From Escherichia phage KBNP1711: a stretch of 64,000 nt of DNA. The translations under genes and the position numbers were made by a program. The stretch lies in sequence record NC_023593.1. One strand, given 5' to 3'. This document shows positions 31,630 through 53,545 of the stretch, piece after piece (within the stretch, counting starts at the first letter, position 1; every line of letters starts with the position of its first letter). Under the pieces are notes generated by a model. It was not told the origin of the DNA and ran no database searches. It saw nothing but the letters and a program-made list of their open reading frames with translations.

Positions 31630-31840
31630 AACCTATATCCATATCATCCTCCTGCCAGACTCGTTTATTAACACGGTGACTAACCTTGTCAGCCTTGGGG
31701 ATACGACCGGTACGTTGATCAAACAGTTGGTGTTTAATCTTCTGATCTTTACGAGTTTCACGGTTAGGTGAAGTTTCATCATAAGTACGGTAGTTGAATT
31801 TGTTACCCATTATCAATATCCTTATTCCAAATTTTATCAA
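31616..31840 (-). CDS. hypothetical small protein
   Basis: ORF track only. Confidence 0.25.
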   Translation of the reverse strand: MIKFGIRILIMGNKFNYRTYDETSPNRETRKDQKIKHQLFDQRTGRIPKADKVSHRVNKRVWQEDDMDIGYGEG

Positions 31841-32642
31841 GCCATGACCACTCGAAGAGGTCTTCTGGTGTTTGACCTACGAATAGGAGACGAGCATTTT
31901 CAAGCATCTTTTCTTCCCATTCTGTATCAAACTTCTTATAATATTCCATTCGCACTATATGATAAAGAGTCCACTTATCATTTACACCTTGTAAAAGGTT
32001 GATAGCGGCTTTCTTTCCAACCCCTTGACGACGGAGTTGTAACTTACCTCCCCACATAACTTCCTCACGTTCACCACAACCGGGAATGTTATCTGTTCCA
32101 TCACCAATGAGCATTTGATAAAAGAAGTTTTGCCAAGCAACCTCATCTGATACATAGTGAGGAGGAACCTCTTTCTGTCTTTCTCCACATGCCCACCGAT
32201 AGTGCCATCCGGGAGTTATCAATAAGTCTTTGTCTCGTGTACAGATGATAGTGTTCTTGTCAGTTCGCTGTCTTTCTGCTAATGCATCATCAGCTTCTCT
32301 TCCATAAACATCTACATACTCGTAATTGTTTTTAATGTAGTCACCAACGTTCTGCCAGTGGAAAGGTCTTTCTCCCGGAGGTCGGTTGGCTTTGTATCCT
32401 TGCTGCTTTGCTACATCAAAACGGAAATTACCGCCTTCGCTGAAGTAGAAGATTGTCTTTCGACAGCCAGCGCGAGCAATGATTGTATCAAGTTTGTTTT
32501 GAAGTCGTTCAATTAGAAACCCATAATCTACTGGTGTACGTCCTGTATCCAGAAAAGGATGCTCCTGAGTCAGAGCACCCACTTCGTATCGGAGAACATC
32601 AGCATCCACTAGAGCTACTTCAGGATACTTAACGTCTTCCAT
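31803..32642 (-). CDS. 5'-3' exonuclease / flap endonuclease
   Basis: 'LVDADVL', 'GREADDALA', 'TRDKDLL', 'IGDGTDNIPG' acidic motifs of FEN/PIN nucleases. Confidence 0.6.
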   Translation of the reverse strand: MEDVKYPEVALVDADVLRYEVGALTQEHPFLDTGRTPVDYGFLIERLQNKLDTIIARAGCRKTIFYFSEGGNFRFDVAKQQGYKANRPPGERPFHWQNVGDYIKNNYEYVDVYGREADDALAERQRTDKNTIICTRDKDLLITPGWHYRWACGERQKEVPPHYVSDEVAWQNFFYQMLIGDGTDNIPGCGEREEVMWGGKLQLRRQGVGKKAAINLLQGVNDKWTLYHIVRMEYYKKFDTEWEEKMLENARLLFVGQTPEDLFEWSWLDKIWNKDIDNG

Positions 32643-38364: not shown

Positions 38365-38711
38365 TTATTATCTCTCATAAATTCGGGTCACTGTACCACC
38401 CGCAGCTTCTACTTGAGCTACGAATGAATCACGCTCTTCATCTGTATAAACCAGCTCATTCAGGAACGTTCCTTCAGAGTCTTGGTACAGGATGTTCCAC
38501 TTAGGCAGGGGCTTACGGATCAAGTCCATCATTCTTTATCCTCCCGTTCTTTCCACAGTTGGGCTAGTTCTAAATAATACTCAGCTTCGTCAGTGCGTCC
38601 TTGTTCTTTACAGATGCTATACTGACGGAAGCACCAATCTGAAGGTTGCTCTTCCACTTCCTTGTCTCCTTGAGAAGTAATCAATAAGACTACTTCATTT
38701 GTTTTTCCAAT

Positions 38712-38903
38712 TCACTCTTCCATTTGAGGAATCTCTAAATGCTTTATAGAGAAGTTTTTATTTGGGAAAGTCTTTATTAGCCAAGCTGCTTCTTGGATAG
38801 CTTTGTTTTCTTTCTCGTAAATACAAAGCCGAGAATCCAATGAAACAATCCTCCCGGTTTCGCTGAAGATAGCCCATGTTTTGTATGTGTAAGTAGGTGT
38901 CAT
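38712..38903 (-). CDS. hypothetical small protein
   Basis: ORF track. Confidence 0.3.
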   Translation of the reverse strand: MTPTYTYKTWAIFSETGRIVSLDSRLCIYEKENKAIQEAAWLIKTFPNKNFSIKHLEIPQMEE

Positions 38904-39275
38904 TTATTTCTCCAACACCGAGATGCTATATCTATCGTGTAAGGTTTTTCTAACCCAAGCAATGCGTTTAGGGTTTTTGTGATGAGAGCCTGTGTAACGT
39001 TCTCTGTGGTATGTGTCACAACCGAAAGGGTATACCGGGTCCTCAAACCCTTCGTGTTCAAACATATACGTCAGATCATTAAAGTCCGTATGTTTTGTGA
39101 AGAAGTAATAGCTTTTATAACAACGGTAGTTGAAACACAAACCGTGCTCAGGACTGAACCATTTTGGGTATTCGTCTGTCTGAGAGATGTTATAATACTG
39201 GAGGAGGAAATCCTCCATCCCCCTTTCTTTGGCAATACATCTTAGTGTTCGGTAAATAATGTTACTTTGTTTCAT
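38904..39275 (-). CDS. hypothetical protein
   Basis: ORF track. Confidence 0.35.
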   Translation of the reverse strand: MKQSNIIYRTLRCIAKERGMEDFLLQYYNISQTDEYPKWFSPEHGLCFNYRCYKSYYFFTKHTDFNDLTYMFEHEGFEDPVYPFGCDTYHRERYTGSHHKNPKRIAWVRKTLHDRYSISVLEK

Positions 39276-39284
39276 TGTGAATTC

Positions 39285-39766
39285 TCAATGTGTGTGATTC
39301 CAGTTTAATCCTATCTGACAATCAGATGCCAGAGGACATTCCATCTTGAGGTACTCACCAGCTTTCTTAACACAAAGCTCTGTAAGCTCTTTTAGCTTTT
39401 GTGCATCATTACGGTGAACAGAGAACTGCCCTTCATCGTGCATGTCAATAACCTTCGCACAACGAACACCATCACGCTCAATCCACTTGTTAAGGAAAAG
39501 CATGGCATACTTCATAACAATCGCACCAGCACTCTGTAATAGGGTATTCAGTGCTTTATGAACCATTACCTTACCTGTTGCATCACGTCTCATTGTAACA
39601 CGACGACCATCAACACCCAAGATATAACCTTGAGCTGCCTTCTCTGTCATACGTTCAATAAGAATTGCAATACAAGGATTCTCTGCCAAGAAACGTGCTC
39701 TCATTACTGCACCTTCTTCAGAGCCTCCACCAACGATAGAACCGAGCTTAGCATCACCTGCCCCAT
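39285..39766 (-). CDS. DNA polymerase (family A), exon 2
   Basis: 'GAGDAKLGSIVGG...ALNTLLQSAGA...HDE' matches the T7 DNA polymerase C-terminus; frame open upstream of track start 39704. Confidence 0.7.
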
Positions 39767-40547
39767 CAATAGTTCAAGCAAAGGCGCTACTCTTTGCTCC
39801 GTTCTCTTATGAACTGCTTACAGTTTCCTGTAAGATCGGACTATATCTTCATCTCCACCTTTACGTGCTGAGAGACAGGCGCTTCCGTAACACTTGTTAC
39901 GTACTCCCTTCCGGGATAGTCTCTGAACTTTCCGTGACACAAACTTTTCTACATAGATCAATGAACTGAGCATCAGATAGTTTACCTTTTGCATTATTCA
40001 CTTCCCAAGTTACCCATTGGACATTTCCAATTTCGTAACCTTTCGAATTATCCTTCCTATCTAAAGAAAGTTTATTCGGATGTCCGCTGACGAAAGATAG
40101 TGAATCTCCTGTCAAGGCACATTTGTAGTTTTGCTGAGAAAGAAGCTCGAATAAATAGTCTTGAGTAATCGTGAACTCAAAACCCCTTTCTCTAGCTCTG
40201 TGATGGGAGTTGTGATATCTCTCACGAACCGCTCCACCCCAAGTTTGTCGATATTGTCCCATAGCAGCAGATGCTGCACTTCTGTTTCGACGTCTCCACT
40301 CATTTGAAGCAATGAGAGCACAATTTTTTACATTGACATTGCTTTCCATCTTTACTCTTAGATGAATTATGGAAACTGTCGAGTGGCTTTTCTTCGCCAC
40401 AGCTTGAACATATCTTTGTCATAAACACCTCCTTGTGTTGATGTTTATGTCACGGCTTAGCTGCTGATTGGCATATCTTTCGACTTAGCTTTCCAGCAAT
40501 TCACCTGTTTTGCTTCTGCACATTTCTATGCAGTGAACCAATTATTT
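39767..40547 (-). mobile_element. group I intron (putative) interrupting DNA polymerase motif B
   Basis: Exon 1 ends on U, intron ends on G; splicing restores 'KTFIYAFNYGAGD'. Confidence 0.55.
39897..40400 (-). CDS. intron-encoded HNH homing endonuclease
   Basis: 'SLDRKDNSKGYEIGNVQWVTWEVNNAKG' HNH-type motif; ORF lies within the intron. Confidence 0.6.
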   Translation of the reverse strand: MAKKSHSTVSIIHLRVKMESNVNVKNCALIASNEWRRRNRSAASAAMGQYRQTWGGAVRERYHNSHHRARERGFEFTITQDYLFELLSQQNYKCALTGDSLSFVSGHPNKLSLDRKDNSKGYEIGNVQWVTWEVNNAKGKLSDAQFIDLCRKVCVTESSETIPEGST

Positions 40548-41910
40548 AGTTAAAGGCATATATAAATGTCTTCGCATTGTCACGAGTAGGAAGACCAGCA
40601 AGTCTCTGATTATGAGAATGGATATCACCTTCTAACAGAATATCACGATACATAACAGCAGAAGCTAAACCACGTTCAGCTAATGCTTTCTTACCAGCGT
40701 TACCTTCTGCAATTGCTTCAGCAAGCATGTCTCTACACTCTTTAATGAGGTAGTGAGCAAGCATACGAAGCTCTAATCCAGAACCATCATAACCTAGGAA
40801 GAGTTCTCTACCAGCTGGTACATAATACTTATATAACCCTACTGGTTTGTCTTTCTTTCCGGGTTTTCCACGTTCGTAGATAACGTTTGTATTTTTTCGT
40901 AAGTAACACCCATCAGGGATATTGTTGGTAATGATGAAAGGATAGTTATGACTATCATCTGTGGAGTAGTTAGATTGAAATAAACTCCTACACTCGTGAC
41001 CAAACAGACCGCGAGAAGGAATATTAACAACAATGCGATGTTTAAAACGAAATGTCGGAGTAGCGCAGCTATTAGCTTCCGCTGAGAGTTTACCATCTGG
41101 ACGTTCCTTATCAATCAGTCCATTAATCAAGCCTAGTCTGTGAGCCGCTACAACACGTCTCTTAAGCAGACTTCCCACCTTACCTAGATCACCCTCAAGA
41201 CCTTCTTCAAGAGTCTCTTCGAGGTTTGTAGGAGCTGTGGGCCACTTGTTCGAAGTAGCTAATGCTCTCTTAATTTCATCAAAGGTTACAGGTTTCTTCC
41301 TGTTAGGGTTTAAACCTAAACCAAAGACATAAGCCTTCATGTAGTTGACAGTTTTGTGACGAAAGTGCTTATCCAAGAATTTCTTGATATCAGCATCAAC
41401 CATCTGAGCTGTCTGTCGCTCTTTCTCATTGCCACGCATCCAAGAGTTGTACCATTCTTGATACGTTCCACACTTACGCAAGGCTCGCTTAATCTCAAAT
41501 GTGTTCCAAGGCTTCTTAGATGTATTAAATTCTGGAGGAAGAAAACCTTCATCCATCAGTGCTTCTTTAACTCGTGCATCCTTTGATGGGTCAAAGTCAA
41601 CATACTCAACACAAGTAAAAGCTCCACCGATATCTTCCCTCTTTAACCCCACTCTGTCACAATATAATTGAGGCCACTTCTGAAGAGCACCAGTCTTCTT
41701 AAAGGGTTTCATGTAAGTAGAACCATCAACCCTCATCTTAGGTAACAGAGGAATCAGCTCTCTGTCGATGTTAACGATAATCTCTCTGAGAAGGTGAACA
41801 TACCACCGTGCATTCCTCCGATTAAAGTTGACACCACTCTTCGCTTGCTTTGAAATTATATCAGCGACAGTCATCTCCGTTAAGAACGGAAGTACATCAG
41901 GGTTCTCCAT
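40548..41910 (-). CDS. DNA polymerase (family A), exon 1
   Basis: Motif A 'DGSGLELRMLAHY'; start of motif B 'RDNAKTFIY'; AAGGAG RBS. Confidence 0.7.
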
Positions 41911-41925
41911 CACCCTCTCCTTTTA

Positions 41926-42303
41926 TTATCGGTATAGTAAATCTGTAAACGCTTGGTTGTCTGCTATTACGTCCAAAGCCTCATCCGTGCTAGGAACTTC
42001 AGTTGCTTCCACTTGGTACGCAACTTCACGTACACGGAAAGCTCTTGCAGGAACCCTAAAGTCTGCATGTCTCTCCATAACATCTTTCTGAACCTGTGCA
42101 AGCTTCATACCCCACACTTCTTCATAAAGCTCTGGATGTTTGTTACTAATAACTACATACTGACGGTGTATGGATTTTGACTCTCTGACCTTAGCTAGTA
42201 GATCATTAAATAGATCTAACTCTTCTTCTGAGAGCGCATCTACAACGTCTTCCCACTTCTCTACACAGAAGCGGTGGGCATGTCTGATAGGTAATGGCAT
42301 CAC
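41926..42303 (-). CDS. hypothetical protein
   Basis: ORF track. Confidence 0.35.
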   Translation of the reverse strand: MMPLPIRHAHRFCVEKWEDVVDALSEEELDLFNDLLAKVRESKSIHRQYVVISNKHPELYEEVWGMKLAQVQKDVMERHADFRVPARAFRVREVAYQVEATEVPSTDEALDVIADNQAFTDLLYR

Positions 42304-42582
42304 TCACCCCTTAGGAAAAGGAATCAACAAATCAACTGCTGCTTGAATATCTTCTTGCACTTTAGGGTTTTTGTAAGAAACAAAACGGCCTTTGCTGTCT
42401 CGAAGCATCACATTAGTGCGGGCAGTTTCTTTAAACATTAAGATATTTTCAGCGGCATCCCTCTCTTCCATCATACCAAAATCCATAATATCTTCTGGAG
42501 CTGAGGCGATTTTGAGCTTGAAGGTCTGGCCTGTGCCGTTGTCGTAACGATCACTGATCTGGATAGTTTTCACCAGAGACAT
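42304..42582 (-). CDS. hypothetical small protein (tandem paralogue 1)
   Basis: Shares 'ARTNV.LR...G.F.SYKN..V...........L.PFPKG' with 42584..42841. Confidence 0.4.
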   Translation of the reverse strand: MSLVKTIQISDRYDNGTGQTFKLKIASAPEDIMDFGMMEERDAAENILMFKETARTNVMLRDSKGRFVSYKNPKVQEDIQAAVDLLIPFPKG

Positions 42583-42583
42583 A

Positions 42584-42841
42584 TTAAACTCCTTTAGGGA
42601 AAGGAAGAAGATTTTCTACTGCAACACGATAAACCTTTTCTACGTTTTTGTTTTTATAAGAGATGAACTTGCCATCAGCACCACGAAGGATTACGTTAGT
42701 TCGAGCTGTCTTTGGGTTATGAGAAATCTGATTAGCAATGATAGACGCGTTAAGAGCATTCTCAGCATAATTAGTGAAGTTCCATTTAACAAGTTTAGTA
42801 GAAAGAGAATCGATGATAGTTACAGTTTTTACGATAGACAT
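42584..42841 (-). CDS. hypothetical small protein (tandem paralogue 2)
   Basis: Paralogue of 42304..42582. Confidence 0.4.
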   Translation of the reverse strand: MSIVKTVTIIDSLSTKLVKWNFTNYAENALNASIIANQISHNPKTARTNVILRGADGKFISYKNKNVEKVYRVAVENLLPFPKGV

Positions 42842-42865
42842 ATTTTATTACCTAAAGGATTTGTA

Positions 42866-42895
42866 TAAAAGAAAAGGCCACCCAAATGGGTAGCC
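42866..42895 (-). terminator. rho-independent terminator (- strand)
   Basis: 'ggctaccc attt gggtggcc' hairpin plus 'ttttctttt' on the - strand. Confidence 0.5.
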
Positions 42896-42900
42896 TCTGA

Positions 42901-43215
42901 TTAACTTGAGCTTAAAGCCCCTTTGCGACCGCCAGCTGATTTTCCAGCGCGATCTCCACTTTTGCCGCCAGCTGAACGATTTCCGCTGACTGTCTCAACA
43001 CGTAAGTTGCTTGACGCATTAGAGCCTCCTGATTTAATGGCTCGTTTGTGTCCGACATCTTTACCTTTGAGTGCAGATTTTCCAACGCGTTTTTCAACGA
43101 TGCGACGTGCACGGTGGCGCTGAGCATCTCCGCTCTTACTTCCAACTCCCGTTTCACCTCTTGCGATGGCTGTACGTCTTTCTTGTGCATAATCTCTTTT
43201 AGCCTTATCAGTCAT
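42901..43215 (-). CDS. basic Gly/Ser/Lys/Arg-rich protein (possible nucleic-acid-binding)
   Basis: Strong AAGGAG RBS; TAATGTATA motif 37 nt upstream. Confidence 0.45.
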   Translation of the reverse strand: MTDKAKRDYAQERRTAIARGETGVGSKSGDAQRHRARRIVEKRVGKSALKGKDVGHKRAIKSGGSNASSNLRVETVSGNRSAGGKSGDRAGKSAGGRKGALSSS

Positions 43216-43251
43216 TTACAACTCCTTAATATATCAGTGTACACTAAGGAG

Positions 43252-43260
43252 TATACATTA
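43252..43260 (-). promoter_or_regulatory. TAATGTATA motif (- strand)
   Basis: + strand 'tatacatta' upstream of 42901..43215. Confidence 0.45.
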
Positions 43261-43286
43261 TGAGAGGGTAGCTTTAGTTGCCAGCT

Positions 43287-43472
43287 TTAGTCACACCACC
43301 CTGTAGGTGGTACAAAAGTGTCAGGAACATCAATAATAGTTGGTTCACCATCATTTACACAGGTATCTTCATTAAATTCTTCACACTCAAAACATGCTTG
43401 TTCAATGTTTTTGTAGAAGTCAATGGTAGAAGTACCATCACCACAGTCTCGGATAACTAGGGCAACTTGCAT
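43287..43472 (-). CDS. hypothetical small Cys-containing protein
   Basis: ORF track. Confidence 0.3.
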   Translation of the reverse strand: MQVALVIRDCGDGTSTIDFYKNIEQACFECEEFNEDTCVNDGEPTIIDVPDTFVPPTGWCD

Positions 43473-44213
43473 TTAATTACCACCCTTTTCCATAGCTTTA
43501 ACGATTGCTTTACAGAAACCAGAACGAACAATATCATCTGAGTCGCCATCAACAATATCAGCGAACTCGTACAGGTCGTGATCGTCAATGAACTCAGTAG
43601 CCCAAGTAAGACCGCTCTCTCGGCCTTTCATATCGTGCTGGTTAGTGTCACCCATGCAGAACAGCTGGGATGTTTCACCCAAGCGAGTCATAATAGAGAA
43701 TGCTTCATCTTTGGTTGTATTCTGGAACTCATCCACAATAACAATGGCATCATTGAAAGAGCGACCACGGAGATATTCCAGAGGCACAAACTCAATGTTC
43801 CCATTACCAAGCTGACATTCATAGAAACCTTTACCATACCGCTGAGTGATTACATCAACAATAGGCATCAGGTATGGTTCGAACTTATCACGAAGCCCAC
43901 CCGGAAGTAATCCAAGAGAGTTACCCATGCCAACAGAGGGTCGGCTAATGATAATCTTTTGAATCTTACCACTCTTCAGTGCATCAATGACAGTAGAGGT
44001 GATGACGAACGTCTTACCACAGCCCGCAGGAGCGTCTGTGAACACCACTTGTTTAGTCTTGATAGCATTGAGTAGCTCAGATTGAAACTGATTCTGAGGG
44101 ACCACTGGCTTCGCTAAAACAACCTCTTCATACTCACGCTTACCTTTCTTAGTGACTAAGGCTTCACGACGTAAATCTTTACGAGATTCTCTACGGGACT
44201 GTCTACGGCTCAT
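43473..44213 (-). CDS. phoH: PhoH-like ATPase
   Basis: Walker A 'DAPAGCGKTF', Walker B 'IVIVDEFQN'. Confidence 0.7.
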   Translation of the reverse strand: MSRRQSRRESRKDLRREALVTKKGKREYEEVVLAKPVVPQNQFQSELLNAIKTKQVVFTDAPAGCGKTFVITSTVIDALKSGKIQKIIISRPSVGMGNSLGLLPGGLRDKFEPYLMPIVDVITQRYGKGFYECQLGNGNIEFVPLEYLRGRSFNDAIVIVDEFQNTTKDEAFSIMTRLGETSQLFCMGDTNQHDMKGRESGLTWATEFIDDHDLYEFADIVDGDSDDIVRSGFCKAIVKAMEKGGN

Positions 44214-44395
44214 TTTCGCTCTCCTAGCTCTTCGTAATTAAATACAGAGGTTCGACAATCTTTACATGTTGTTGTATAGACCCGAACATTAATGAACTTC
44301 TTGTTCTTCCCTTTGGTGGGTGAGCCTTTAGCAAGCTCGCTGATAACTTTAGAACTTAAGTTTAGGTTTGTTCCTTCACATTTAGAACACTTCAC
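44210..44395 (-). CDS. small zinc-ribbon protein
   Basis: 'CSKCEG...CKDC' paired CxxC. Confidence 0.35.
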   Translation of the reverse strand: MKCSKCEGTNLNLSSKVISELAKGSPTKGKNKKFINVRVYTTTCKDCRTSVFNYEELGERK

Positions 44396-44558
44396 TCCGG
44401 CTCACCAACAGTAACATCCCATACAACTTGGGAGATGATGTTGTTAATCTGTTTGATTTGCTCGTGAGTCAGTTGCATACCTTTCATTTTCCGAGAGGCA
44501 TTACTTCGTGCTCTTCGCTGACGATAGAAGTTATTCTTTTTAGTAGAGTGTAAGCTAC

Positions 44559-44744
44559 TCATTTCACAACCTTAAATTTGAATGTTGTTGGGTGATAATA
44601 ATGCAACCTGTTAATGGTGTGCTTTGTTTCAAGATATGTCCTACAGGAGTGACACATAACATGAGACAAACCAGTCACAGGATTGGGCTTAAAATTGATG
44701 ATAGTCTTCTCTTTCTTACAGAAGCTACACACTTTCTTATCCAT
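44559..44744 (-). CDS. small zinc-ribbon protein
   Basis: 'CSFC...CHSC' paired CxxC. Confidence 0.35.
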   Translation of the reverse strand: MDKKVCSFCKKEKTIINFKPNPVTGLSHVMCHSCRTYLETKHTINRLHYYHPTTFKFKVVK

Positions 44745-44892
44745 CTTCTCTCCTGCTAATCCTCTGAGTTGTGGGAACAGCAGTATTCACATACTCCACA
44801 ACAAGGACAAATCTCTACACTTGGGTCATATGCATCATCAACTGTCATCCCACACTTGGTGCAGAACACATCATCATCATCTTCTTCCAATA

Positions 44893-45549
44893 TTAATTCT
44901 CCAAAGTTTTCTTCAGAGCTGCCCACGAGATTGGGTAGAGTTTAGCCATCTCTTCATCCAGAGATTGAGCAAACACTCGAACTTCGTATTGAGCGTGAGA
45001 GGAGAGTCGCTGACGACACAACTCAAACCAGCCATACAAAGAACCAGTCCACACCCACTCAGTGATCATTCCCTGAGGAAGAACAAATCGAGCTTGCTCT
45101 GGTGCAACGAATTCAATCAACTTGTCATATGCTGCTAGAGAGGCTTCATATGCATCGTTAATCAACATTAATGCTTCAGCTCGCTCTCCATCAATGAGTT
45201 GAACCCCTGAACCTGCATGGAGGTCCGAAGGTCTCGCAAAAATCTCTTTAGGGATGAAGACTTCAACTGCTCCATCTTTATACCTCCGGGACATTTCGTT
45301 CCACGAGAATCCAACCTGATGCTTGCCCAGCTGTCTCGCAATTGCGATAGGTGCTTTGCATCGGAAACTGACTTGCGGGTGCCTGAAAGGCGTGACATGC
45401 TTCTCTCTTGCGAGGAAGTTGATGAGACGTTCATCACGTTCATTTAAATCACCTTCACGGGTTACGCCAAAGGAAACTCGAGCTGCGTTTACTACGCTAC
45501 GATCACTTCCCATAGCTTCGATTAATGTTGCTTGTAATTGTTCATTCAT
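44893..45549 (-). CDS. thyX: flavin-dependent thymidylate synthase (ThyX family), atypical RHR motif
   Basis: Matches recalled Thermotoga ThyX ('AARVSF','KAPI..ARQ','S.RY','SHAQ.E'); has KHQ where RHR is expected. Confidence 0.65.
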   Translation of the reverse strand: MNEQLQATLIEAMGSDRSVVNAARVSFGVTREGDLNERDERLINFLAREKHVTPFRHPQVSFRCKAPIAIARQLGKHQVGFSWNEMSRRYKDGAVEVFIPKEIFARPSDLHAGSGVQLIDGERAEALMLINDAYEASLAAYDKLIEFVAPEQARFVLPQGMITEWVWTGSLYGWFELCRQRLSSHAQYEVRVFAQSLDEEMAKLYPISWAALKKTLEN

Positions 45550-45564
45550 CCGTGAATTTCCTTA

Positions 45565-45774
45565 TTAATATTCTTTTACATAATAAACCACTAAGGTTCC
45601 CATCTCTGACAATGTTGATTTATGTAAGCTTACTTTACTATAAATCTTTGGAGCCATCTTAAGAGCCTTCTTAAAACGGCGAGCATCTTTACGAGTAGCA
45701 AAGTGCTCTGTAACAGGTATAGACAGATCTTGGTAGATATAATATACCACCGTCCAATATTTTTTCATAATCAA
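45565..45774 (-). CDS. small protein, member of a 4-copy paralogue family
   Basis: 'W.V........F.TRK(D/E)AR..KK...' and C-terminal YY shared with 47631..48267. Confidence 0.4.
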   Translation of the reverse strand: MIMKKYWTVVYYIYQDLSIPVTEHFATRKDARRFKKALKMAPKIYSKVSLHKSTLSEMGTLVVYYVKEY

Positions 45775-46043
45775 ACACCTAGGGCAGTAGTTAAGAATGC
45801 TTTCAGGTTTGCTTCAGTCTGCATACCAGAGATGCTGTAGTGTGCACCACTGTTACGGTCAGGCACAACGAAAGCAGGGATACTTCGTACACCATACTTA
45901 ACAGCTTGTTCACGACCATCACCTTCAAGGATATTAATCTCTTCCACTTCTACATCAAACTCCTTAACAACCTTCTCAAAGGTAGGAGCCATTGCTTTAC
46001 ATGGAGCACACTGATCACTATAAAACTTAATTACTTTACTCAT
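45771..46043 (-). CDS. thioredoxin-like protein
   Basis: 'CAPC' active-site dithiol; AAGGA RBS before internal Met (track ORF to 46097). Confidence 0.6.
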   Translation of the reverse strand: MSKVIKFYSDQCAPCKAMAPTFEKVVKEFDVEVEEINILEGDGREQAVKYGVRSIPAFVVPDRNSGAHYSISGMQTEANLKAFLTTALGV

Positions 46044-46233
46044 TCTATTCCTTGTTAATAAACAGGTTGATATGATGCTGGGTAGCAGGAACAACAATAA
46101 AAGATTTATACTGACCTTTTGCTAAGTCATGAGCAATCTTCTTTGTCTGACCAAGACCCATCACACAGCCGCTAACGATAATGGCATGTGCTTGTAATTC
46201 TTCAGGTAGGTTTAGTTTCACTCTTTGGATTCC

Positions 46234-46419
46234 TTATAGCATACAAAGAATAATAACAAGAGGTAGTGTTATAGCAAAATGTACCAGAACAACACTACCT
46301 AGCTTGATAGCTTTAACATCCTCTTCTGCTGGGTTTTCTTTAATTGCTAAATTTCGAGCTTTATATATAACAGTACCAACTATTAACGACCACACGGCCC
46401 ACACAATCAGTGAAATCAT
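46234..46419 (-). CDS. small two-TM membrane protein (paralogue 1)
   Basis: Two hydrophobic segments; similar to 46429..46608. Confidence 0.35.
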   Translation of the reverse strand: MISLIVWAVWSLIVGTVIYKARNLAIKENPAEEDVKAIKLGSVVLVHFAITLPLVIILCML

Positions 46420-46428
46420 ATCAAACCC

Positions 46429-46608
46429 TTATGCAGTCCACAGGTGGAGAAGGAAAGGAATCACAATAGTACAAACTACCAGAGCGATGCTGCCATGTTT
46501 AATAGCTTTAGCTTCACTTGGATTTTCTTTAAGCATCTGCTTCTGGGCCAGATAGACGATACCACCAATAATGATTGCCCAAAAAGACCATACGATTGCT
46601 GAAAACAT
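46429..46608 (-). CDS. small two-TM membrane protein (paralogue 2)
   Basis: 'MFSAIVWSFWAIIIGG...KENPSEAKAIKHGS' resembles 46234..46419; track ORF trimmed to internal Met. Confidence 0.35.
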   Translation of the reverse strand: MFSAIVWSFWAIIIGGIVYLAQKQMLKENPSEAKAIKHGSIALVVCTIVIPFLLHLWTA

Positions 46609-46669
46609 ATTCACATCCTTATAAAGAAGTTCGCCCCACCTCGGATTAGGAGACAGGGCGGAGGTTTGA

Positions 46670-47254
46670 TTAGTAAGACACGTCACCACTGGAGTGGGAC
46701 ATGTTGCTCTTGACGAAGTAACAGAACTTTCCAAGACCTTCATTAATTTCTTGAAGCATACTCTGATCAACTGGATAGGTGCACAAGTCTGAATCAAACT
46801 CGTCCATCTTCTCAATGATACACATAAGAGTCATGCACATGTCAGAAAGCATACCGTCCATGTCGAGATCAGCGTTACCTTCTCGGAACCAAGCACAACC
46901 AAGATAGCTACTAGCTGTTGCATCCACTTTAATGCAGTGATAACGCATTCGCTCTGCTACCCGATCACCAGTTTCACGAGCATAATCTTCTAGTTCATCG
47001 AACATACCGTGAACACCTTGGAAACCAGCTCCAGAGACGTTCCAGTGATAGTTCTTTGATTTGATGTGTAGAAGTTCAAGGTTAGCCTGCACACCACACA
47101 GGATGTGCTCTAGGCTGTTACCGCTAATCAATTTATTCATTCCCTCTAGACGAGAGATAGAAGAGTCAGTTGTAGAGAATGGGTTGCTAGAACCCACTCG
47201 TGTCAGTTCAGGTAAGTCGAAGACATTATTATGCATTAGGTTCATCTCCTTCAA
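46670..47254 (-). CDS. Dps/ferritin-like protein
   Basis: 'ANLELLHIKSKNYHWNVSGAGFQGVHGMFDELEDYARETGDRVAERM' resembles the Dps di-iron site helix pair. Confidence 0.45.
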   Translation of the reverse strand: MKEMNLMHNNVFDLPELTRVGSSNPFSTTDSSISRLEGMNKLISGNSLEHILCGVQANLELLHIKSKNYHWNVSGAGFQGVHGMFDELEDYARETGDRVAERMRYHCIKVDATASSYLGCAWFREGNADLDMDGMLSDMCMTLMCIIEKMDEFDSDLCTYPVDQSMLQEINEGLGKFCYFVKSNMSHSSGDVSY

Positions 47255-47558
47255 GCTCAGTAGAGTTAGCTACATTTCGTTCCAGATTTGAGATTACCTG
47301 TTGGGTGATAACGATGCAGTTCTGTGGGTCAACTGACTTAGAACGTCCCATCTCAGGGTCATACACCTTAACACGTTTTGCTGTAGAACCAGTTACCTGT
47401 AATACCTTGAGAAGATAACCCTGATTCCCGATAGACCATGCAACAACATCACGATTCTTGATGAATCGACCAAGCATATCACGATGATAGAACTGCTGCA
47501 TAACCTTTGATTTATTAATCTCTTCGGCTGGCGGAGCCACTTTACTCAAATCTAACAT
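47229..47558 (-). CDS. hypothetical protein
   Basis: ORF track; variant AAATGTATA motif about 40 nt upstream. Confidence 0.35.
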   Translation of the reverse strand: MLDLSKVAPPAEEINKSKVMQQFYHRDMLGRFIKNRDVVAWSIGNQGYLLKVLQVTGSTAKRVKVYDPEMGRSKSVDPQNCIVITQQVISNLERNVANSTELEGDEPNA

Positions 47559-47630
47559 TTCACTCTCTCCTGTTTAACACAATATTCTTATACTGTATAT
47601 ACATTTGAGAGTGATCATATCTACTACCAA

Positions 47631-47840
47631 TCAGTAGTAAATTACTTTAGACATAAAAGAACCAGTGTTAGGGTCTTCATGCCAGCGATGTATGTCAGCG
47701 CTTTTTACTATTGTGCCCAGAGTCTTCAACTGTTTCTTAGCAATACGAGCCTCTTTGCGAGTGTCAAACAATTTGATGTTATCTTTTCTCATATGTTGCT
47801 CAAGATCCCAAACAACATGAATAGCCCACATCTTTTTCAT
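47631..47840 (-). CDS. small protein, paralogue family member
   Basis: Tandem array member. Confidence 0.4.
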   Translation of the reverse strand: MKKMWAIHVVWDLEQHMRKDNIKLFDTRKEARIAKKQLKTLGTIVKSADIHRWHEDPNTGSFMSKVIYY

Positions 47841-48055
47841 TAGTAATGTACCTTTCCGCTGATATAAATACGGCCTGAGGTATACTCATAGCCCTTGAGA
47901 ATCTTAACAGAGGTAGTGGAGCCATCGTTTAGTGCACAGATTGACTTCTTAAGATTGCGTGCATCTTCTCGTGTCTTCTGGTAGGTCATGGTCACACCCC
48001 CACTCTTCCACTCTGTTTTAACTAACCAAACTATTTTCATAAGACCTGCTCTCAT
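47840..48055 (-). CDS. small protein, paralogue family member
   Basis: Tandem array member. Confidence 0.4.
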   Translation of the reverse strand: MRAGLMKIVWLVKTEWKSGGVTMTYQKTREDARNLKKSICALNDGSTTSVKILKGYEYTSGRIYISGKVHY

Positions 48056-48267
48056 TAGTAGTACACCTTGCTACCAGCCATAAATGCCCCTGTTGAGTTT
48101 ATCATGGCTTTGCTGATAGTAACTTTCTTACACCGTAAACATACCTTCCAGTTCTTTTTACAGATTCGAGCTTCTTGTCGAGTGTTACAAAAAATAGCCG
48201 AAGATATTTCTTGGGTGTTGTTATCATAAACACGAACACACCACTTTTTCATTGTTCCAAACTCCAC
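48055..48267 (-). CDS. small protein, paralogue family member
   Basis: Tandem array member. Confidence 0.4.
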   Translation of the reverse strand: MEFGTMKKWCVRVYDNNTQEISSAIFCNTRQEARICKKNWKVCLRCKKVTISKAMINSTGAFMAGSKVYY

Positions 48268-48467
48268 TATCTGTCAACCGATTCAGGGACAAACTGCATT
48301 ACACAGACCTGATTACGAGGAAGGTTTATTTCACAAGCGGCTTTTCTATCAGCAACCTTAGATGACGAGTTAGGGCCAATTTGAGCCATCATTAATCCCA
48401 TAGCTAACATGCCGAGGATTACACCAATTGCTAAAGATGCTACAGTTTCTTGTTTCATCTTGATCAC
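48267..48467 (-). CDS. small membrane protein
   Basis: One hydrophobic segment 'LAIGVILGMLAMGLMMA'. Confidence 0.3.
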   Translation of the reverse strand: MIKMKQETVASLAIGVILGMLAMGLMMAQIGPNSSSKVADRKAACEINLPRNQVCVMQFVPESVDR

Positions 48468-48997
48468 ACCCCTTTAGATGCAACTACACCTTCAGAATTA
48501 TTATAACGACCCTTCACTGCATATGAATGTTCCCCTGCATGAGAGTGCTCAAACATAACCATCTGACCAACACGCATACCAGCACGAACTCGTAAGCTAT
48601 GATGCTTGGTTACGTTATGGAATTCAAATGTCAGCTTACTGCTATTAAACCCTGCGTCTGCCCACCCAGCGTGGAGATGGTTCAAGCCACAACGAGCCAT
48701 CGAAGACCGCAGGACAAACAAACTGGAGATGTTATCTGGAAGGTTAAACTCTTCCATCGAGTGAGCTAAGAAGAATTGTCCCGGAGTAATGATAATACCG
48801 TCTTCAGGGATTTTTACTTCTTTCCACTTGAGATTTTCTTTCGCATCAATGTCAACAATCCCATCAGCCTGTTCTTCAATAAGGATAGTATCACCAATAC
48901 GGATATCCACACTAGCAGCGTTAACATACTTATGCTCCGCATCCAGAAAACCGTTATCGATAACGTCGTGTAATTCCATGCTTCCTAATAAACTCAT
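48464..48997 (-). CDS. dcd: dCTP deaminase (dCTP deaminase/dUTPase superfamily)
   Basis: 'VDIRIGD', 'LRSSMARCGL', 'HAGWADAGF' match E. coli Dcd motifs (recalled). Confidence 0.65.
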   Translation of the reverse strand: MSLLGSMELHDVIDNGFLDAEHKYVNAASVDIRIGDTILIEEQADGIVDIDAKENLKWKEVKIPEDGIIITPGQFFLAHSMEEFNLPDNISSLFVLRSSMARCGLNHLHAGWADAGFNSSKLTFEFHNVTKHHSLRVRAGMRVGQMVMFEHSHAGEHSYAVKGRYNNSEGVVASKGV

Positions 48998-49011
48998 TCT
49001 TATTCCTTATG

Positions 49012-50292
49012 TTAATCTGTGATACTGTCGCTTTCGTCAACCCAGACTGGATTATTAATCTGTCCTAAACGACGAGCTGATGTTTCGTTAATAGAGTTAA
49101 CCCCTGCTGTGCGAGGGTTTGTGTACCACGGTCGGACTATGCTACCCGACTGAATTGCTTGGTTTGCTTCTACATGCCACCTGTTTGATACCGTGTTGGC
49201 TTCAAAGTTACCACCCGCTCCACCACTGATAGGCACAGCTTGAGCTGGTTGATTTACTCGGTTAGTTCCTGCCCCAAAGGCTGCTGCAAATTCAGACACA
49301 CGTGCACTAAATGAAGAACGAGCACGCTGAGGAGGTGATATATCATTTCGTGTATCTACTGCACGAGGCATAGCCCAAGTATCATCTGTTGAGATATCAG
49401 GGGTAGGCTCTTGCTCTAGAGGTTGAAGATTAGCTGTCCATTGACTATTCAGTATACGATAGAAATCTGCACCATAACCACTTCGGATAACATCCTCTCT
49501 GACACCAAAGAAGCGACTGATATCCCCACCGATTCGGGCTAGTTTGTCATTGTATGCAGGTATGATTATTCCACCCTCTGTCACTAAATCAGAGACACGA
49601 CTTGTTGTAAGTGGTGAAGTGATCCAACAATAATAATCAGTAATGTGACCATCGTATCCGAAGAATGCAATCTCTGCATCAGGCCATTTCTTGTGGACAT
49701 ATGCCACTTCACGGTTAGAACAAACAGGGATTGCACCTGTTTCAGTCATTGCATAGAAGCCGTCAGAAGAGAACCAAAGTGAATCTAGTGCTAAGAATCC
49801 ACGACACACGCTCGGGAAAGTAGCAGCCAGCGCCCCAAGTGAGGTAGGTTCATTGAACATTAACTGAATCTTTGCACTCTGATAATTAATCTCTAGGATA
49901 TCTACAAAATTCAAAGAAGACCCAGGGGCATATTGATTATTACTTCGTCCAATATCCTGCTCAATGAGAAGAGATCTTGTTTCAACACCATGAGCCTCTG
50001 CCCACTCTTTGAAATCTTCAAGGAACAAGCGAGCCTTAGCTCGCCACATCGACCGATCAGTTACAGACTGTCTCGGCAATCCACCCTCTGTAGTGATGAG
50101 AAAGATATCAATGTCGTGAGGTTCACGCGTCTGAAAGATTGCATCCCTAACAGCACCACCTGCAATGATAGGGTACACACCATCAGGGATTAAACGGTTT
50201 GCAATCAACTCGTTAATTAACGTAAGACCAGACACAAGCTGCGGACTATCATCAATCCGACGACGAATTAGTGCATTAGGGATATTATACAT
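49012..50292 (-). CDS. nucleotidyltransferase (CCA-adding/poly(A) polymerase head-domain type)
   Basis: 'IIAGGAVRDAIF...HDIDIFL' matches the 'GGxVRD...DxD' active site. Confidence 0.5.
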   Translation of the reverse strand: MYNIPNALIRRRIDDSPQLVSGLTLINELIANRLIPDGVYPIIAGGAVRDAIFQTREPHDIDIFLITTEGGLPRQSVTDRSMWRAKARLFLEDFKEWAEAHGVETRSLLIEQDIGRSNNQYAPGSSLNFVDILEINYQSAKIQLMFNEPTSLGALAATFPSVCRGFLALDSLWFSSDGFYAMTETGAIPVCSNREVAYVHKKWPDAEIAFFGYDGHITDYYCWITSPLTTSRVSDLVTEGGIIIPAYNDKLARIGGDISRFFGVREDVIRSGYGADFYRILNSQWTANLQPLEQEPTPDISTDDTWAMPRAVDTRNDISPPQRARSSFSARVSEFAAAFGAGTNRVNQPAQAVPISGGAGGNFEANTVSNRWHVEANQAIQSGSIVRPWYTNPRTAGVNSINETSARRLGQINNPVWVDESDSITD

Positions 50293-50841
50293 TTACATTT
50301 TCCAATATAAAGATGGGGGGTCATTTGGGTCAAAGTTTGCAATATGGCAAAGATATTTATAAACCTTAACCGTTAAGTTTACGTCCTGTTCACAATAAGT
50401 AAACATGTCCTCTGTAAAGGCATCCCATGCTTCTTCCTGTTCACCGTAATCACCCTTAAGCTCTTCTAAGAACTCACCCCATTGCTTTAAGCCATGACCT
50501 CTTGGGCCATGTCTAGGGTCGCCTTTCGGATACTCAGGACTGTCACCAATACGGTCAGGTTTAAGATACCGACTCAGACATAAAGTGTCTAGGACGTTGA
50601 ATTTGTAATCAATCAAATCAGGGTACATCTTCTTCAGAGCACATAAGTCGAAGTCAATAACGTTATGACCTACAACAACATCAGCCTCTGTAAGTTTCTT
50701 GATACCCTCTTCAATCTGGTGAGGGCGAAATCCCCACCGTTCACCAGTTGATATATCGAAGATAAAGATACACCATACGTTTGTGATATTGTCGTACAGT
50801 GCATCACTCTCAATATCAAATGCGTAGACTTTCTTTACCAC
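50293..50841 (-). CDS. DnaQ-like 3'-5' exonuclease
   Basis: Exo I 'YAFDIESD', Exo II-like '[11 protein letters not shown]'. Confidence 0.55.
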
Positions 50842-52625
50842 GGGCTTTTCTCTCCATCTTGAGCAAGAAGTGATGCTGCATCCTCTCCATTTGTCAGCGA
50901 GAATGGGTTTTCTTCATCAATTTCATGATCTTCACGCTCAAGCAACCGTCCCGTCTCTCCTACATACTTCGTATAGCACACCCCTGTTTGTCCATAGTTA
51001 CGCTCTTTGAGGAGTCGTATAATGGAGAGGTTCTTAGCCAGACCATCTGCTTGTTTGTCACGTTCAAAACCGATGATACATTGACACCAACGCATAAGAG
51101 AACGAGAGCCAGTAAACTGTACCTCTCGAACCTGACCACCTTCTTCATGAGGTGCACCACCTGCCGGAGCATTGAGGTGAGATAGTACGAATGCTGTGAA
51201 GTTTAATTCTTGACACATACCAGCAAGCTCGGAAGCAATCTTACTGATTTCAGTGTTAATCTCTGAAGGTGTTAAATGAGACACCAGAGCGGTAATGTTA
51301 TCAAGGATGATAAACTTACACTGGTTTTCAACAACCCAGAAACGGATACACTGTTTAATGTCGGCCCATTCATTCTGACCAAAGTTATCATAGAGGAAGA
51401 ATTTATCTGCATATCGAAGAGCTTCGTTACGCAATGTATCTTCATCATACTCAACATCAGGTCTATGGAAAGGAATAGATGCTGACTTGCCTGCAATGTT
51501 CTTAACGGACATTCCGACCTTCTCTTCCAAGAAGAATCCGCCACCATTAAAACCATGCTCAAGGCAAAGCCAAGCAACCAGTTCATGTGCAATCAATGTT
51601 TTACCAGAGCCTACACCACCACCAATTGCTACCATTTCTCCCCAACGAATACCGTAGGTCATCTCATTAAGAGTTTTCCACGGGTATGGGATACCCCACT
51701 CTGCTTTCTTCAGAGCATCATCTAAGCAATCAAAAACAGTTACAGCACCAGCTGGAGATTCCCGCTTCGCTGAATATTTAAGAATGTTAAACAATTCCTG
51801 ACCACGACCAGAGAGGAGCATATCATTCGCATCTTTAAGCTCTTTCTCAACACCGTTGTACTGGAAAGAACCTTTAGGAATACGAGCAAACTTCACATGT
51901 GGGAACAGAGCACGCCCTTTGGTAAGAGCAATCTCACCAGCATCATCGTTGTCCATACAAAGGACAACCTCTTCAAAACCATTCAAGAACTCACGGTTGC
52001 GAGACAGAACGGAAGAAATCGACCCTGCACCGAACGGTAAAGAGACACACGCTGGTTTAATGTTTGTTGCATTTGTAAAAGCTGTAAGAACGTGGAAGCC
52101 AGACATGCAAGACAAGGGGTCTTCAAAGATGAAGAGCTTCTTATTATACACATCTCCACGTTTAGCCTGTGCCATACCAAACAAATCAGCTTCTTTCACA
52201 CTACCGATGTAATAAAACTTTTTACTATCAAGTAGTTTAACCTCGTAACCGACAATGTTTCCGTCACGTTCACGAGGAAAGAAGTAACTGTCCGGTGTCT
52301 GACCATCAGTTTGACTGAGACCAATACGACATTCAAAACGCTCTGATACAGCTTTAGGGATTAATCGACGAGTGAGTTCTCCTTGAGGTAACTCCAAGCA
52401 ATCATCCAAGACCTCTCGAAGTTCTTCAGGGGACAGCTCTTTCTTTTCATTTGGTGTAGGTGTCGTGCCTTTCTCAAAGACTTCGTAATTACCACACCGG
52501 TTACAACTACCCCACTCTTCACCGGATTCCTCATTACGGAAGAGAATCATGTGATTGTGGGTTTTATCACGACCATGAGAGATGCACTCCTTACAGCCTG
52601 TGTCTCCCAAAATGATCTTTGACAT
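50835..52625 (-). CDS. primase-helicase (T7 gp4-like)
   Basis: N-terminal Zn ribbon (CxxC...CxxC), TOPRIM 'MDNDDAG', Walker A 'GGGVGSGKT'. Confidence 0.75.
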
Positions 52626-52662
52626 GCTCTATCCTCCTTGGATTCTCCTTGAGCAAACTACC

Positions 52663-52872
52663 TTACTTATAAAAACTTCGAATCATGTCCCAGATTTCTT
52701 CCTGCTGGACCCTAAAGAAAGCTAAACGTGTCGATGTACGTTCGATAAACTCTTCACTATGCTTTTCTCTATCTAGCATACTGACAAGCTTTTCGTATTT
52801 ATTGATCTTCCATCGCATTTTTAAATAGTCTGATTCTAGTGTCCTTAACCTCTGACACTCAATCAAATCCAT
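52663..52872 (-). CDS. hypothetical small protein
   Basis: ORF track. Confidence 0.3.
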   Translation of the reverse strand: MDLIECQRLRTLESDYLKMRWKINKYEKLVSMLDREKHSEEFIERTSTRLAFFRVQQEEIWDMIRSFYK

Positions 52873-53291
52873 CAGTTATCCTCTGACAGATAAAGAGACC
52901 AGTCACCAGATTCAACCAGTTCATCTTGCTCTTCATCAATGTGATAAATCCAAGCAGTGACAGTTTCACCACTATCCAGAACCACTTCGATAGGTGTACG
53001 CTTGTAGAAAGTGTGTGGGTTGTCATTACCACGATGCCCTTCCAGCATGTCATAAGCGCCCTCAACACCATCCATATCCGTCTTAAACACTTCAACACGA
53101 ACAGGTTTACCGTTACTGCTGTGTTCCAGAGAAACACTTGGGAAGTATGAACCACCGTAGCGGTACAGGTTGTAGTTTTCTTTAGTGAAACCTTCACCAA
53201 TCGATTCAGCACCTGCACGAGCATTCACTCGGAAGTTAGCCTGACCAGTACGAAGAGAACCATAAGTTGCTACATAAATTACTTCTGACAT
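52872..53291 (-). CDS. gamma-glutamylcyclotransferase-like (AIG2/YtfP family)
   Basis: N-terminal 'YVATYGSLRTGQAN', C-terminal 'VESGDW', cf. E. coli YtfP. Confidence 0.55.
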   Translation of the reverse strand: MSEVIYVATYGSLRTGQANFRVNARAGAESIGEGFTKENYNLYRYGGSYFPSVSLEHSSNGKPVRVEVFKTDMDGVEGAYDMLEGHRGNDNPHTFYKRTPIEVVLDSGETVTAWIYHIDEEQDELVESGDWSLYLSEDN

Positions 53292-53362
53292 TTTAAATAC
53301 CTTTGTTCATTGTTTAGTTAATCCGAACTAGCCTCCTCTTTCGAAGAAGCTAGAGCAGATTG

Positions 53363-53545
53363 CTATGCTGTGAAGTTTTTGATTACACCGCAAATAACAT
53401 CTGTTTCAAACGTACCCACCAGAACATCGTCTCGGTAGAAGTTAATCGCTCTACCGTCTCGGTTAAAGTGATCTGCTTCAATGAGCATTGACTGTACCTG
53501 ACCATCTGGAGTGGAGGTTCGAAAGATGACGTTATACTGACTCAT
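53363..53545 (-). CDS. hypothetical small protein
   Basis: ORF track. Confidence 0.3.
   Translation of the reverse strand: MSQYNVIFRTSTPDGQVQSMLIEADHFNRDGRAINFYRDDVLVGTFETDVICGVIKNFTA

Follow-up and report, generated by a model that had tools for sequence, protein, structure and literature searches.

A putative stand-alone proofreading exonuclease gene and a T7-type polymerase gene lacking that domain in Escherichia phage KBNP1711

We identified in DNA of Escherichia phage KBNP1711 a 182-aa open reading frame whose product is likely the 3'-5' exonuclease, or proofreading, half of a T7-type replicative polymerase, parted from the polymerase half by gene fission in the inter-domain linker and docked on the polymerase. 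In T7, exonuclease and polymerase form one 704-aa chain (gp5), whereas the window (the whole stretch of DNA analyzed, 64,000 nucleotides of sequence record NC_023593.1) carries them as two genes (Table 1). From the polymerase start (41913) to the exonuclease stop (50293) we measured 8,380 bp, as expected from the roughly 8.4 kb given in a preliminary description of the sequence. A split exonuclease/polymerase arrangement is already known for phiEco32-like and LUZ24-like phages: relatives are annotated in GenBank, PHROG families are named for it and at least two genome papers discuss it. Polymerase, 5'-3' exonuclease and 3'-5' exonuclease are each separately encoded in all members of the Kuravirus-like group (PMC9965538), and PMC3517423 likewise reports a split for the LUZ24 group and, citing Savalia 2008, for phiEco32. 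Our analysis adds that the break would fall exactly in the gp5 linker, that the exonuclease appears to have kept an ancestral position beside the primase-helicase gene and that fission apparently occurred once, before the phiEco32-like, Privateer-like and LUZ24-like lineages diverged from their common ancestor. The literature searched yields neither a biochemical reconstitution of a Pol A split in this way nor enzymology on the exonuclease subunit of one from a phage; a T7-like polymerase that occurs naturally in two pieces could therefore be a handy system for studying the docking of a proofreading domain and the possibility of titrating fidelity.

Table 1. Coordinates of the features discussed, in positions of the window.
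Feature	Position	Strand	Remarks
Candidate 5'-3' exonuclease	31803..32642	-	phrog_107, E 1.6e-66; PF02739, E 7e-6, below gathering score
Polymerase exon 2	39285..39766	-	Second half of motif B and motif C; PF00476, E 5e-15
Group I intron, 781 nt	39767..40547	-	In polymerase motif B; Rfam RF00028; borders from alignment with the intron-free EP335 gene
HNH/EndoVII-like homing endonuclease reading frame	39897..40400	-	Inside the intron; PHROG matches
Polymerase exon 1	40548..41913	-	ATG at 41910, GTG upstream at 41913; starts at about T7 gp5 residue 200
Terminator-like hairpin	42873..42898		Hairpin and T-tract
Phage thioredoxin	45771..46097	-	PF00085, E 1.5e-13; between exonuclease and polymerase genes
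Terminator-like hairpin	46632..46660		Hairpin and T-tract
194-aa protein, "DNA binding protein" in relatives	46670..47254	-	Ferritin/Dps-like, PF00210, E 5e-7
Nucleotidyltransferase, 426 aa	49012..50292	-	
Stand-alone 3'-5' exonuclease gene, 182 aa	50293..50841	-	Homologue of T7 gp5 residues 2 to about 197
Exo III, YCEQD	50383..50397	-	Residues 149-153 (Y149, D153); DEDDy type; Y149, D153 invariant
Exo II, GHNVIDFD	50647..50670	-	Residues 58-65 (N60, D65); H59, N60, D65 invariant
Exo I, FDIESD	50803..50820	-	Residues 8-13 (catalytic D9, E11); T7 gp5 equivalents D5, E7
Primase-helicase, T7 gp4-like	50835..52625	-	Adjacent upstream of exonuclease; Pfam DnaB_C, Toprim_2
Primase-helicase C-terminus	50835..50930	-	Acidic tail
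Ribosome-binding site, GGAGAG	50850..50855	-	8-nt spacer to GTG start 50841..50839; read from sequence

A stand-alone exonuclease of the T7 gp5 type

The separate 182-aa reading frame beside the primase-helicase gene and its FDIESD and GHNVIDFD motifs, all recognized in the preliminary description, are present at the positions given there. That description named only Exo I and Exo II; the Exo III motif YCEQD completes a DEDDy set. Residues D9, E11, H59, N60, D65, Y149 and D153 are invariant among 28 stand-alone sequences and T7 gp5 (an alignment of 27 homologues, the window reading frame and T7 gp5), and the Exo II pattern N-x2-3-(F/Y)-D is found as N60/F64/D65. In a large protein database, 32 homologues reached E<=0.001 (46-97% identity, 105-193 aa), most of them full length. 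The Pfam family PF01612 (DNA_pol_A_exo1) matched residues 5-164 with 26.2 bits (gathering cut-off 23.6, E 8.1e-6), and two PHROG families named "DNA polymerase exonuclease subunit" matched the reading frame with E values of 3e-70 and 6e-36. These matches support the reading of the gene as a complete exonuclease domain of the family A polymerase type, with every catalytic residue intact.

Comparisons with known structures led to the same enzyme. When searched with phmmer against PDB sequences, the exonuclease had T7 DNA polymerase as its sole match (residues 4-182, E 2e-9), and its profile aligned to T7 gp5 in hhalign with a probability of 99.4% (E 2e-21), the family covering gp5 residues 2-211 and residues 6-182 of the window protein corresponding to about T7 2-197. 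The AlphaFold model (pLDDT 90.5, pTM 0.87) predicts an RNase H-like alpha/beta fold, and the top 27 Foldseek matches in the PDB were all T7 gp5 chains (E 1.7e-11 to 1e-8, TM about 0.6-0.7). Judged by these alignments, the protein is a direct homologue of the gp5 N-terminal domain. The likeness to T7 extends from the fold and the DEDDy motifs to the place of the gene after the primase-helicase gene and to a T7-like polymerase partner.

The label "DnaQ-like" used in the preliminary description holds at the level of the superfamily but not for the DnaQ/epsilon type. The epsilon subunit of E. coli Pol III (DnaQ) is a DEDD-superfamily proofreading nuclease on a polypeptide separate from alpha; it is of the DEDDh type (H-x4-D) and binds a C-family polymerase via its C-terminal tail, rather than being a split-off Pol A domain. 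In the phage protein, Exo III reads Y-x3-D and not H-x4-D, and PF00929 (RNase_T/DnaQ) gave no match to it at E<=0.01, which rules out the DEDDh type. Thus, the exonuclease fails the DnaQ-type tests, and its likeness to the epsilon/alpha pair is one of principle only.

Further down the Foldseek list stand small stand-alone DEDD nucleases (TREX, NrnC and RNase T, E about 1e-4 to 1e-5), and the gene lies in a block rich in nucleotide metabolism (dCTP deaminase, ThyX, thioredoxin, nucleotidyltransferase). Both observations would fit an active DEDD nuclease with a job other than proofreading, such as degradation of host DNA, processing of recombination ends or nucleotide salvage. We consider such a role very improbable: the closest relatives in sequence and structure are proofreading domains attached to polymerases, by six orders of magnitude in E value, and an exonuclease-less polymerase was paired with a stand-alone exonuclease in all five lineages examined for both genes within one genome or contig (the window, Bas89, EP335, NV1 and vB_CsaP_009). 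The replicative polymerase would, moreover, otherwise be left with no editing function, and the literature describes the split as common to the whole group (PMC9965538).

The invariant residues bear on another reading, in which the protein is a catalytically dead remnant that serves as a structural subunit only. Inactivated exonuclease domains do occur in other polymerases, for example in Taq and Bst Pol I. Here, however, the catalytic residues are all conserved among homologues down to 46% identity, and we find a dead remnant scarcely credible.

The polymerase gene and the break in the linker

The polymerase half is encoded in two exons separated by a group I intron, which splits motif B at KTFIYAFN|YGAGD and was recognized by RF00028 as two half-matches (48 and 35 bits). 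The spliced product would have 614 aa. Its family A motifs A, B and C (DGSGLELRMLAH, RDNAKTFIYAFNYGAGD and HDEGQ) are conserved and align to those of T7, relative to which the phage polymerase carries large insertions. The intron is also found in Bas89, whose record describes a polymerase gene joined from two exons with an endonuclease inside it, and is missing from EP335.

The absence of Exo I, II and III motifs from the polymerase, noted in the preliminary description, was borne out by four kinds of evidence, which together lead us to reject a leftover exonuclease domain in exon 1. Exon 1 had no Pfam match at E<=0.01. The full-length polymerase profile phrog_17 was tiled consecutively by the exonuclease (670-825), exon 1 (836-1072) and exon 2 (1097-1233). 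Profile alignment to T7 polymerase placed the N-terminus of the phage protein at about T7 residue 190-213 onward, close to residue 200, with no exonuclease domain before it. Lastly, the model of an uninterrupted homologue 87% identical to the polymerase (pLDDT 89.9) had T7 gp5 as its best match (E 2e-25), and its N-terminus consists of two long helices, with the RNase H-like sheet absent from this homologue model. On these alignments, the exonuclease gene and the polymerase gene complement each other exactly, each supplying one half of a T7-type family A polymerase; they would be split in the gp5 inter-domain linker, because the exonuclease ends and the polymerase begins at about T7 residue 200 and the two tile phrog_17.

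Sequence on both sides of the break has been retained. The exonuclease tail carries conserved residues F170, P175 and P176, which align to the T7 linker FPPEIDF, and the polymerase N-terminus carries the conserved pattern PF..EM.VADIIS.Q.K.GV.F. Conservation of the former linker on either side of the break is compatible with a retained domain interface. The exonuclease would dock non-covalently on the polymerase subunit and so rebuild a gp5-like two-domain enzyme, in which, on the model of T7 gp5, a mispaired primer end would leave the polymerase site for the two-metal DEDDy site, where it would be removed. The split-proofreading interpretation of the preliminary description, in which editing is supplied in trans, is thus supported in silico; "in trans" here most likely denotes such a docked subunit and not a nuclease that diffuses freely. 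Catalysis by the protein, its binding to the polymerase and its role in fidelity are what we infer.

Fused relatives and origin of the split

The window belongs to a phiEco32-like coliphage. The 14 kb around the exonuclease are 93% identical to those of Escherichia phages KarlSchell_Bas89 and EP335 (Gordonclarkvirinae, Nieuwekanaalvirus) and 84-86% identical to those of many phiEco32-like coliphages. Bas89 has the same gene at the same position (Bas89_0069, 98.4% identical), annotated as "DNA polymerase exonuclease subunit". Among phiEco32-like exonuclease subunits (Bas89_0069, EP335 ORF77 and YF01 gp70) there was no substantive difference from the window gene. The annotated start of EP335 ORF77 (11461..11967 of locus L002) is 14 codons shorter (507 versus 549 nt); it is probably misannotated, because it would fall past the Exo I motif should EP335 and the window match here, which their 93% identity makes likely.

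To place the split among related phages we relied on 80 IMG/VR loci, each encoding a relative of the exonuclease, and on broader database searches. The primase-helicase gene and the exonuclease domain are adjacent in all 80. In the 10 closest loci (41-89% identity), the exonuclease is a stand-alone frame of 169-201 codons directly after the primase-helicase; one of these lies on a 7.9-kb fragment, and the contigs of the other nine measure 24-97 kb, seven falling within 77-97 kb. A polymerase match follows in six, 6.8-9.7 kb past the end of the exonuclease match, and the DNA available for the other four contains no polymerase match. In the remaining 70 loci (37-44% identity), mostly fragments and marine podovirus contigs of roughly 40 kb, the exonuclease is the N-terminus of an exonuclease-polymerase reading frame of 574-678 codons after the primase-helicase, where the contig permits.

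In the alignment, three natural fusions (P0137, P0140 and P0143; 632-664 aa) run through the junction, matching first the exonuclease and then the polymerase, and the split pair has about 23 more residues at the break than these fused relatives. In a neighbor-joining tree of the polymerase domain (Kimura distances, 415 columns; a coarse method), 13 of 13 exonuclease-less polymerases fell into one clade in 200 of 200 bootstraps, with the fused P0137 group as its sister. Because all sampled exonuclease-less polymerases belong to this one clade, a single ancient gene fission in an ancestor shared by the phiEco32-like, Privateer-like and LUZ24-like lineages is moderately supported by the tree. After fission, the exonuclease would have held the ancestral site by the primase-helicase gene while other genes gathered between the halves, and the polymerase half would have come to lie 8.4 kb downstream, behind nucleotide-metabolism genes.

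A known parallel outside the phiEco32-like phages is the "DNA polymerase part I/part II" pair of LUZ24-like phages and Vicosavirus (for example Pseudomonas phages NV1 and tf), which show the same fission and the same adjacency to the primase-helicase. They also share the upstream synteny (amidoligase, glutamine amidotransferase, ATP-grasp and gamma-glutamyl cyclotransferase), and their polymerases fall in the same clade as that of the window. They differ in that the exonuclease is only 35-37% identical and the spacer measures only about 2 kb, as seen in NV1. In Cronobacter phage vB_CsaP_009 the spacer spans 5.3 kb.

Broader searches recovered both forms. With tblastn, the exonuclease domain was detected in 1,861 phage records; among the matches listed, those in T7-like phages are single polymerase genes, and those in Privateer-like and LUZ24-like phages are genes for a "DNA polymerase exonuclease subunit" or "3'-5' exonuclease". 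When 1.84 billion cluster representatives were searched exhaustively, 2,504 matched at E<=1e-3. Among the best 150 of these, 82 proteins have at least 550 aa, 37 have at most 235 aa (32 of the 37 look complete) and 31 are of intermediate length; the match is N-terminal in the protein, with one exception.

The fused forms nearest the exonuclease-less clade (P0137, P0140 and P0143) have an Exo III of the form H-R-C-x-E-D (H-x4-D, DEDDh-like). Both the stand-alone exonucleases and T7 have Y-x3-D. A switch of the catalytic general-base residue thus seems to have occurred between the sister lineages.

Gene order, expression and partner proteins

The GTG start of the exonuclease gene overlaps the stop codon (TAA) of the primase-helicase gene by 7 nt, and its own TAA abuts the ATG of the nucleotidyltransferase gene (TAAATG). 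Every gene in this region of the window is encoded on the minus strand. From this layout, translation of the exonuclease is probably coupled to that of the primase-helicase gene and not to that of the polymerase gene. A programmed frameshift joining the primase-helicase and the exonuclease was considered and rejected, because the overlap has no slippery heptamer, the gene has a good ribosome-binding site and a GTG start, and the N-termini of homologues vary in length. The DNA between the exonuclease and polymerase genes contains two strong terminator-like hairpins, so that expression of the two need not be stoichiometric. Scans of 38500..53500 revealed no enrichment of sigma-70 promoters (29 versus 31 expected from shuffles) or of terminators (11 versus 9.5 expected from shuffles).

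This gene order also invites a reading in which the exonuclease proofreads undocked: free or tethered to the helicase, it would edit primer ends that the polymerase has released. Extrinsic proofreading of this kind would loosely resemble Pol III epsilon on a tether. The 7-nt overlap and the probable translational coupling with the primase-helicase gene, the adjacency of the two genes in every related locus and the candidate terminators before the polymerase gene are all in its favor. The adjacency needs no special explanation, however, because it is the ancestral order of the fused exonuclease-polymerase genes, and the conservation of the linker on either side of the break fits a retained domain interface. 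On balance, we regard undocked proofreading as unlikely and retain the docked subunit as the preferred model.

A more specific proposal is that the split is functional rather than neutral, with the exonuclease made with, and travelling with, the primase-helicase and not a fixed part of any polymerase. We hold this to be quite unlikely. If true, one exonuclease could serve both the leading- and the lagging-strand polymerases, and the phage could adjust the fidelity of replication by varying the ratio of exonuclease to polymerase.

The C-terminal tail of the primase-helicase is acidic, and its last residue is aromatic. This recalls the acidic, Phe-terminated tail of T7 gp4, which contacts gp5, and by analogy suggests a T7-like contact between helicase and polymerase.

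On the other side of the exonuclease gene, the nucleotidyltransferase is only 27-35% identical to the gene in the same position in six Kuravirus-type loci (L004-L009), whose flanking genes are far closer to those of the window (primase-helicase 77-96% and exonuclease 58-89% identical). By this comparison it resembles a cassette that has been replaced or evolves fast. The first of the two hairpins downstream of it (46632..46660) comes after the ferritin/Dps-like gene.

Two more genes of the window could belong to the replication machinery. A candidate 5'-3' exonuclease is encoded on its own gene, so that all three Pol I-type activities would reside on separate genes. A phage thioredoxin is also encoded; such thioredoxins have been proposed as a polymerase processivity factor, as host thioredoxin is for T7 gp5 (PMC7881722). 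The polymerase region aligned to the thioredoxin-binding loop of T7 is shorter than that of T7.
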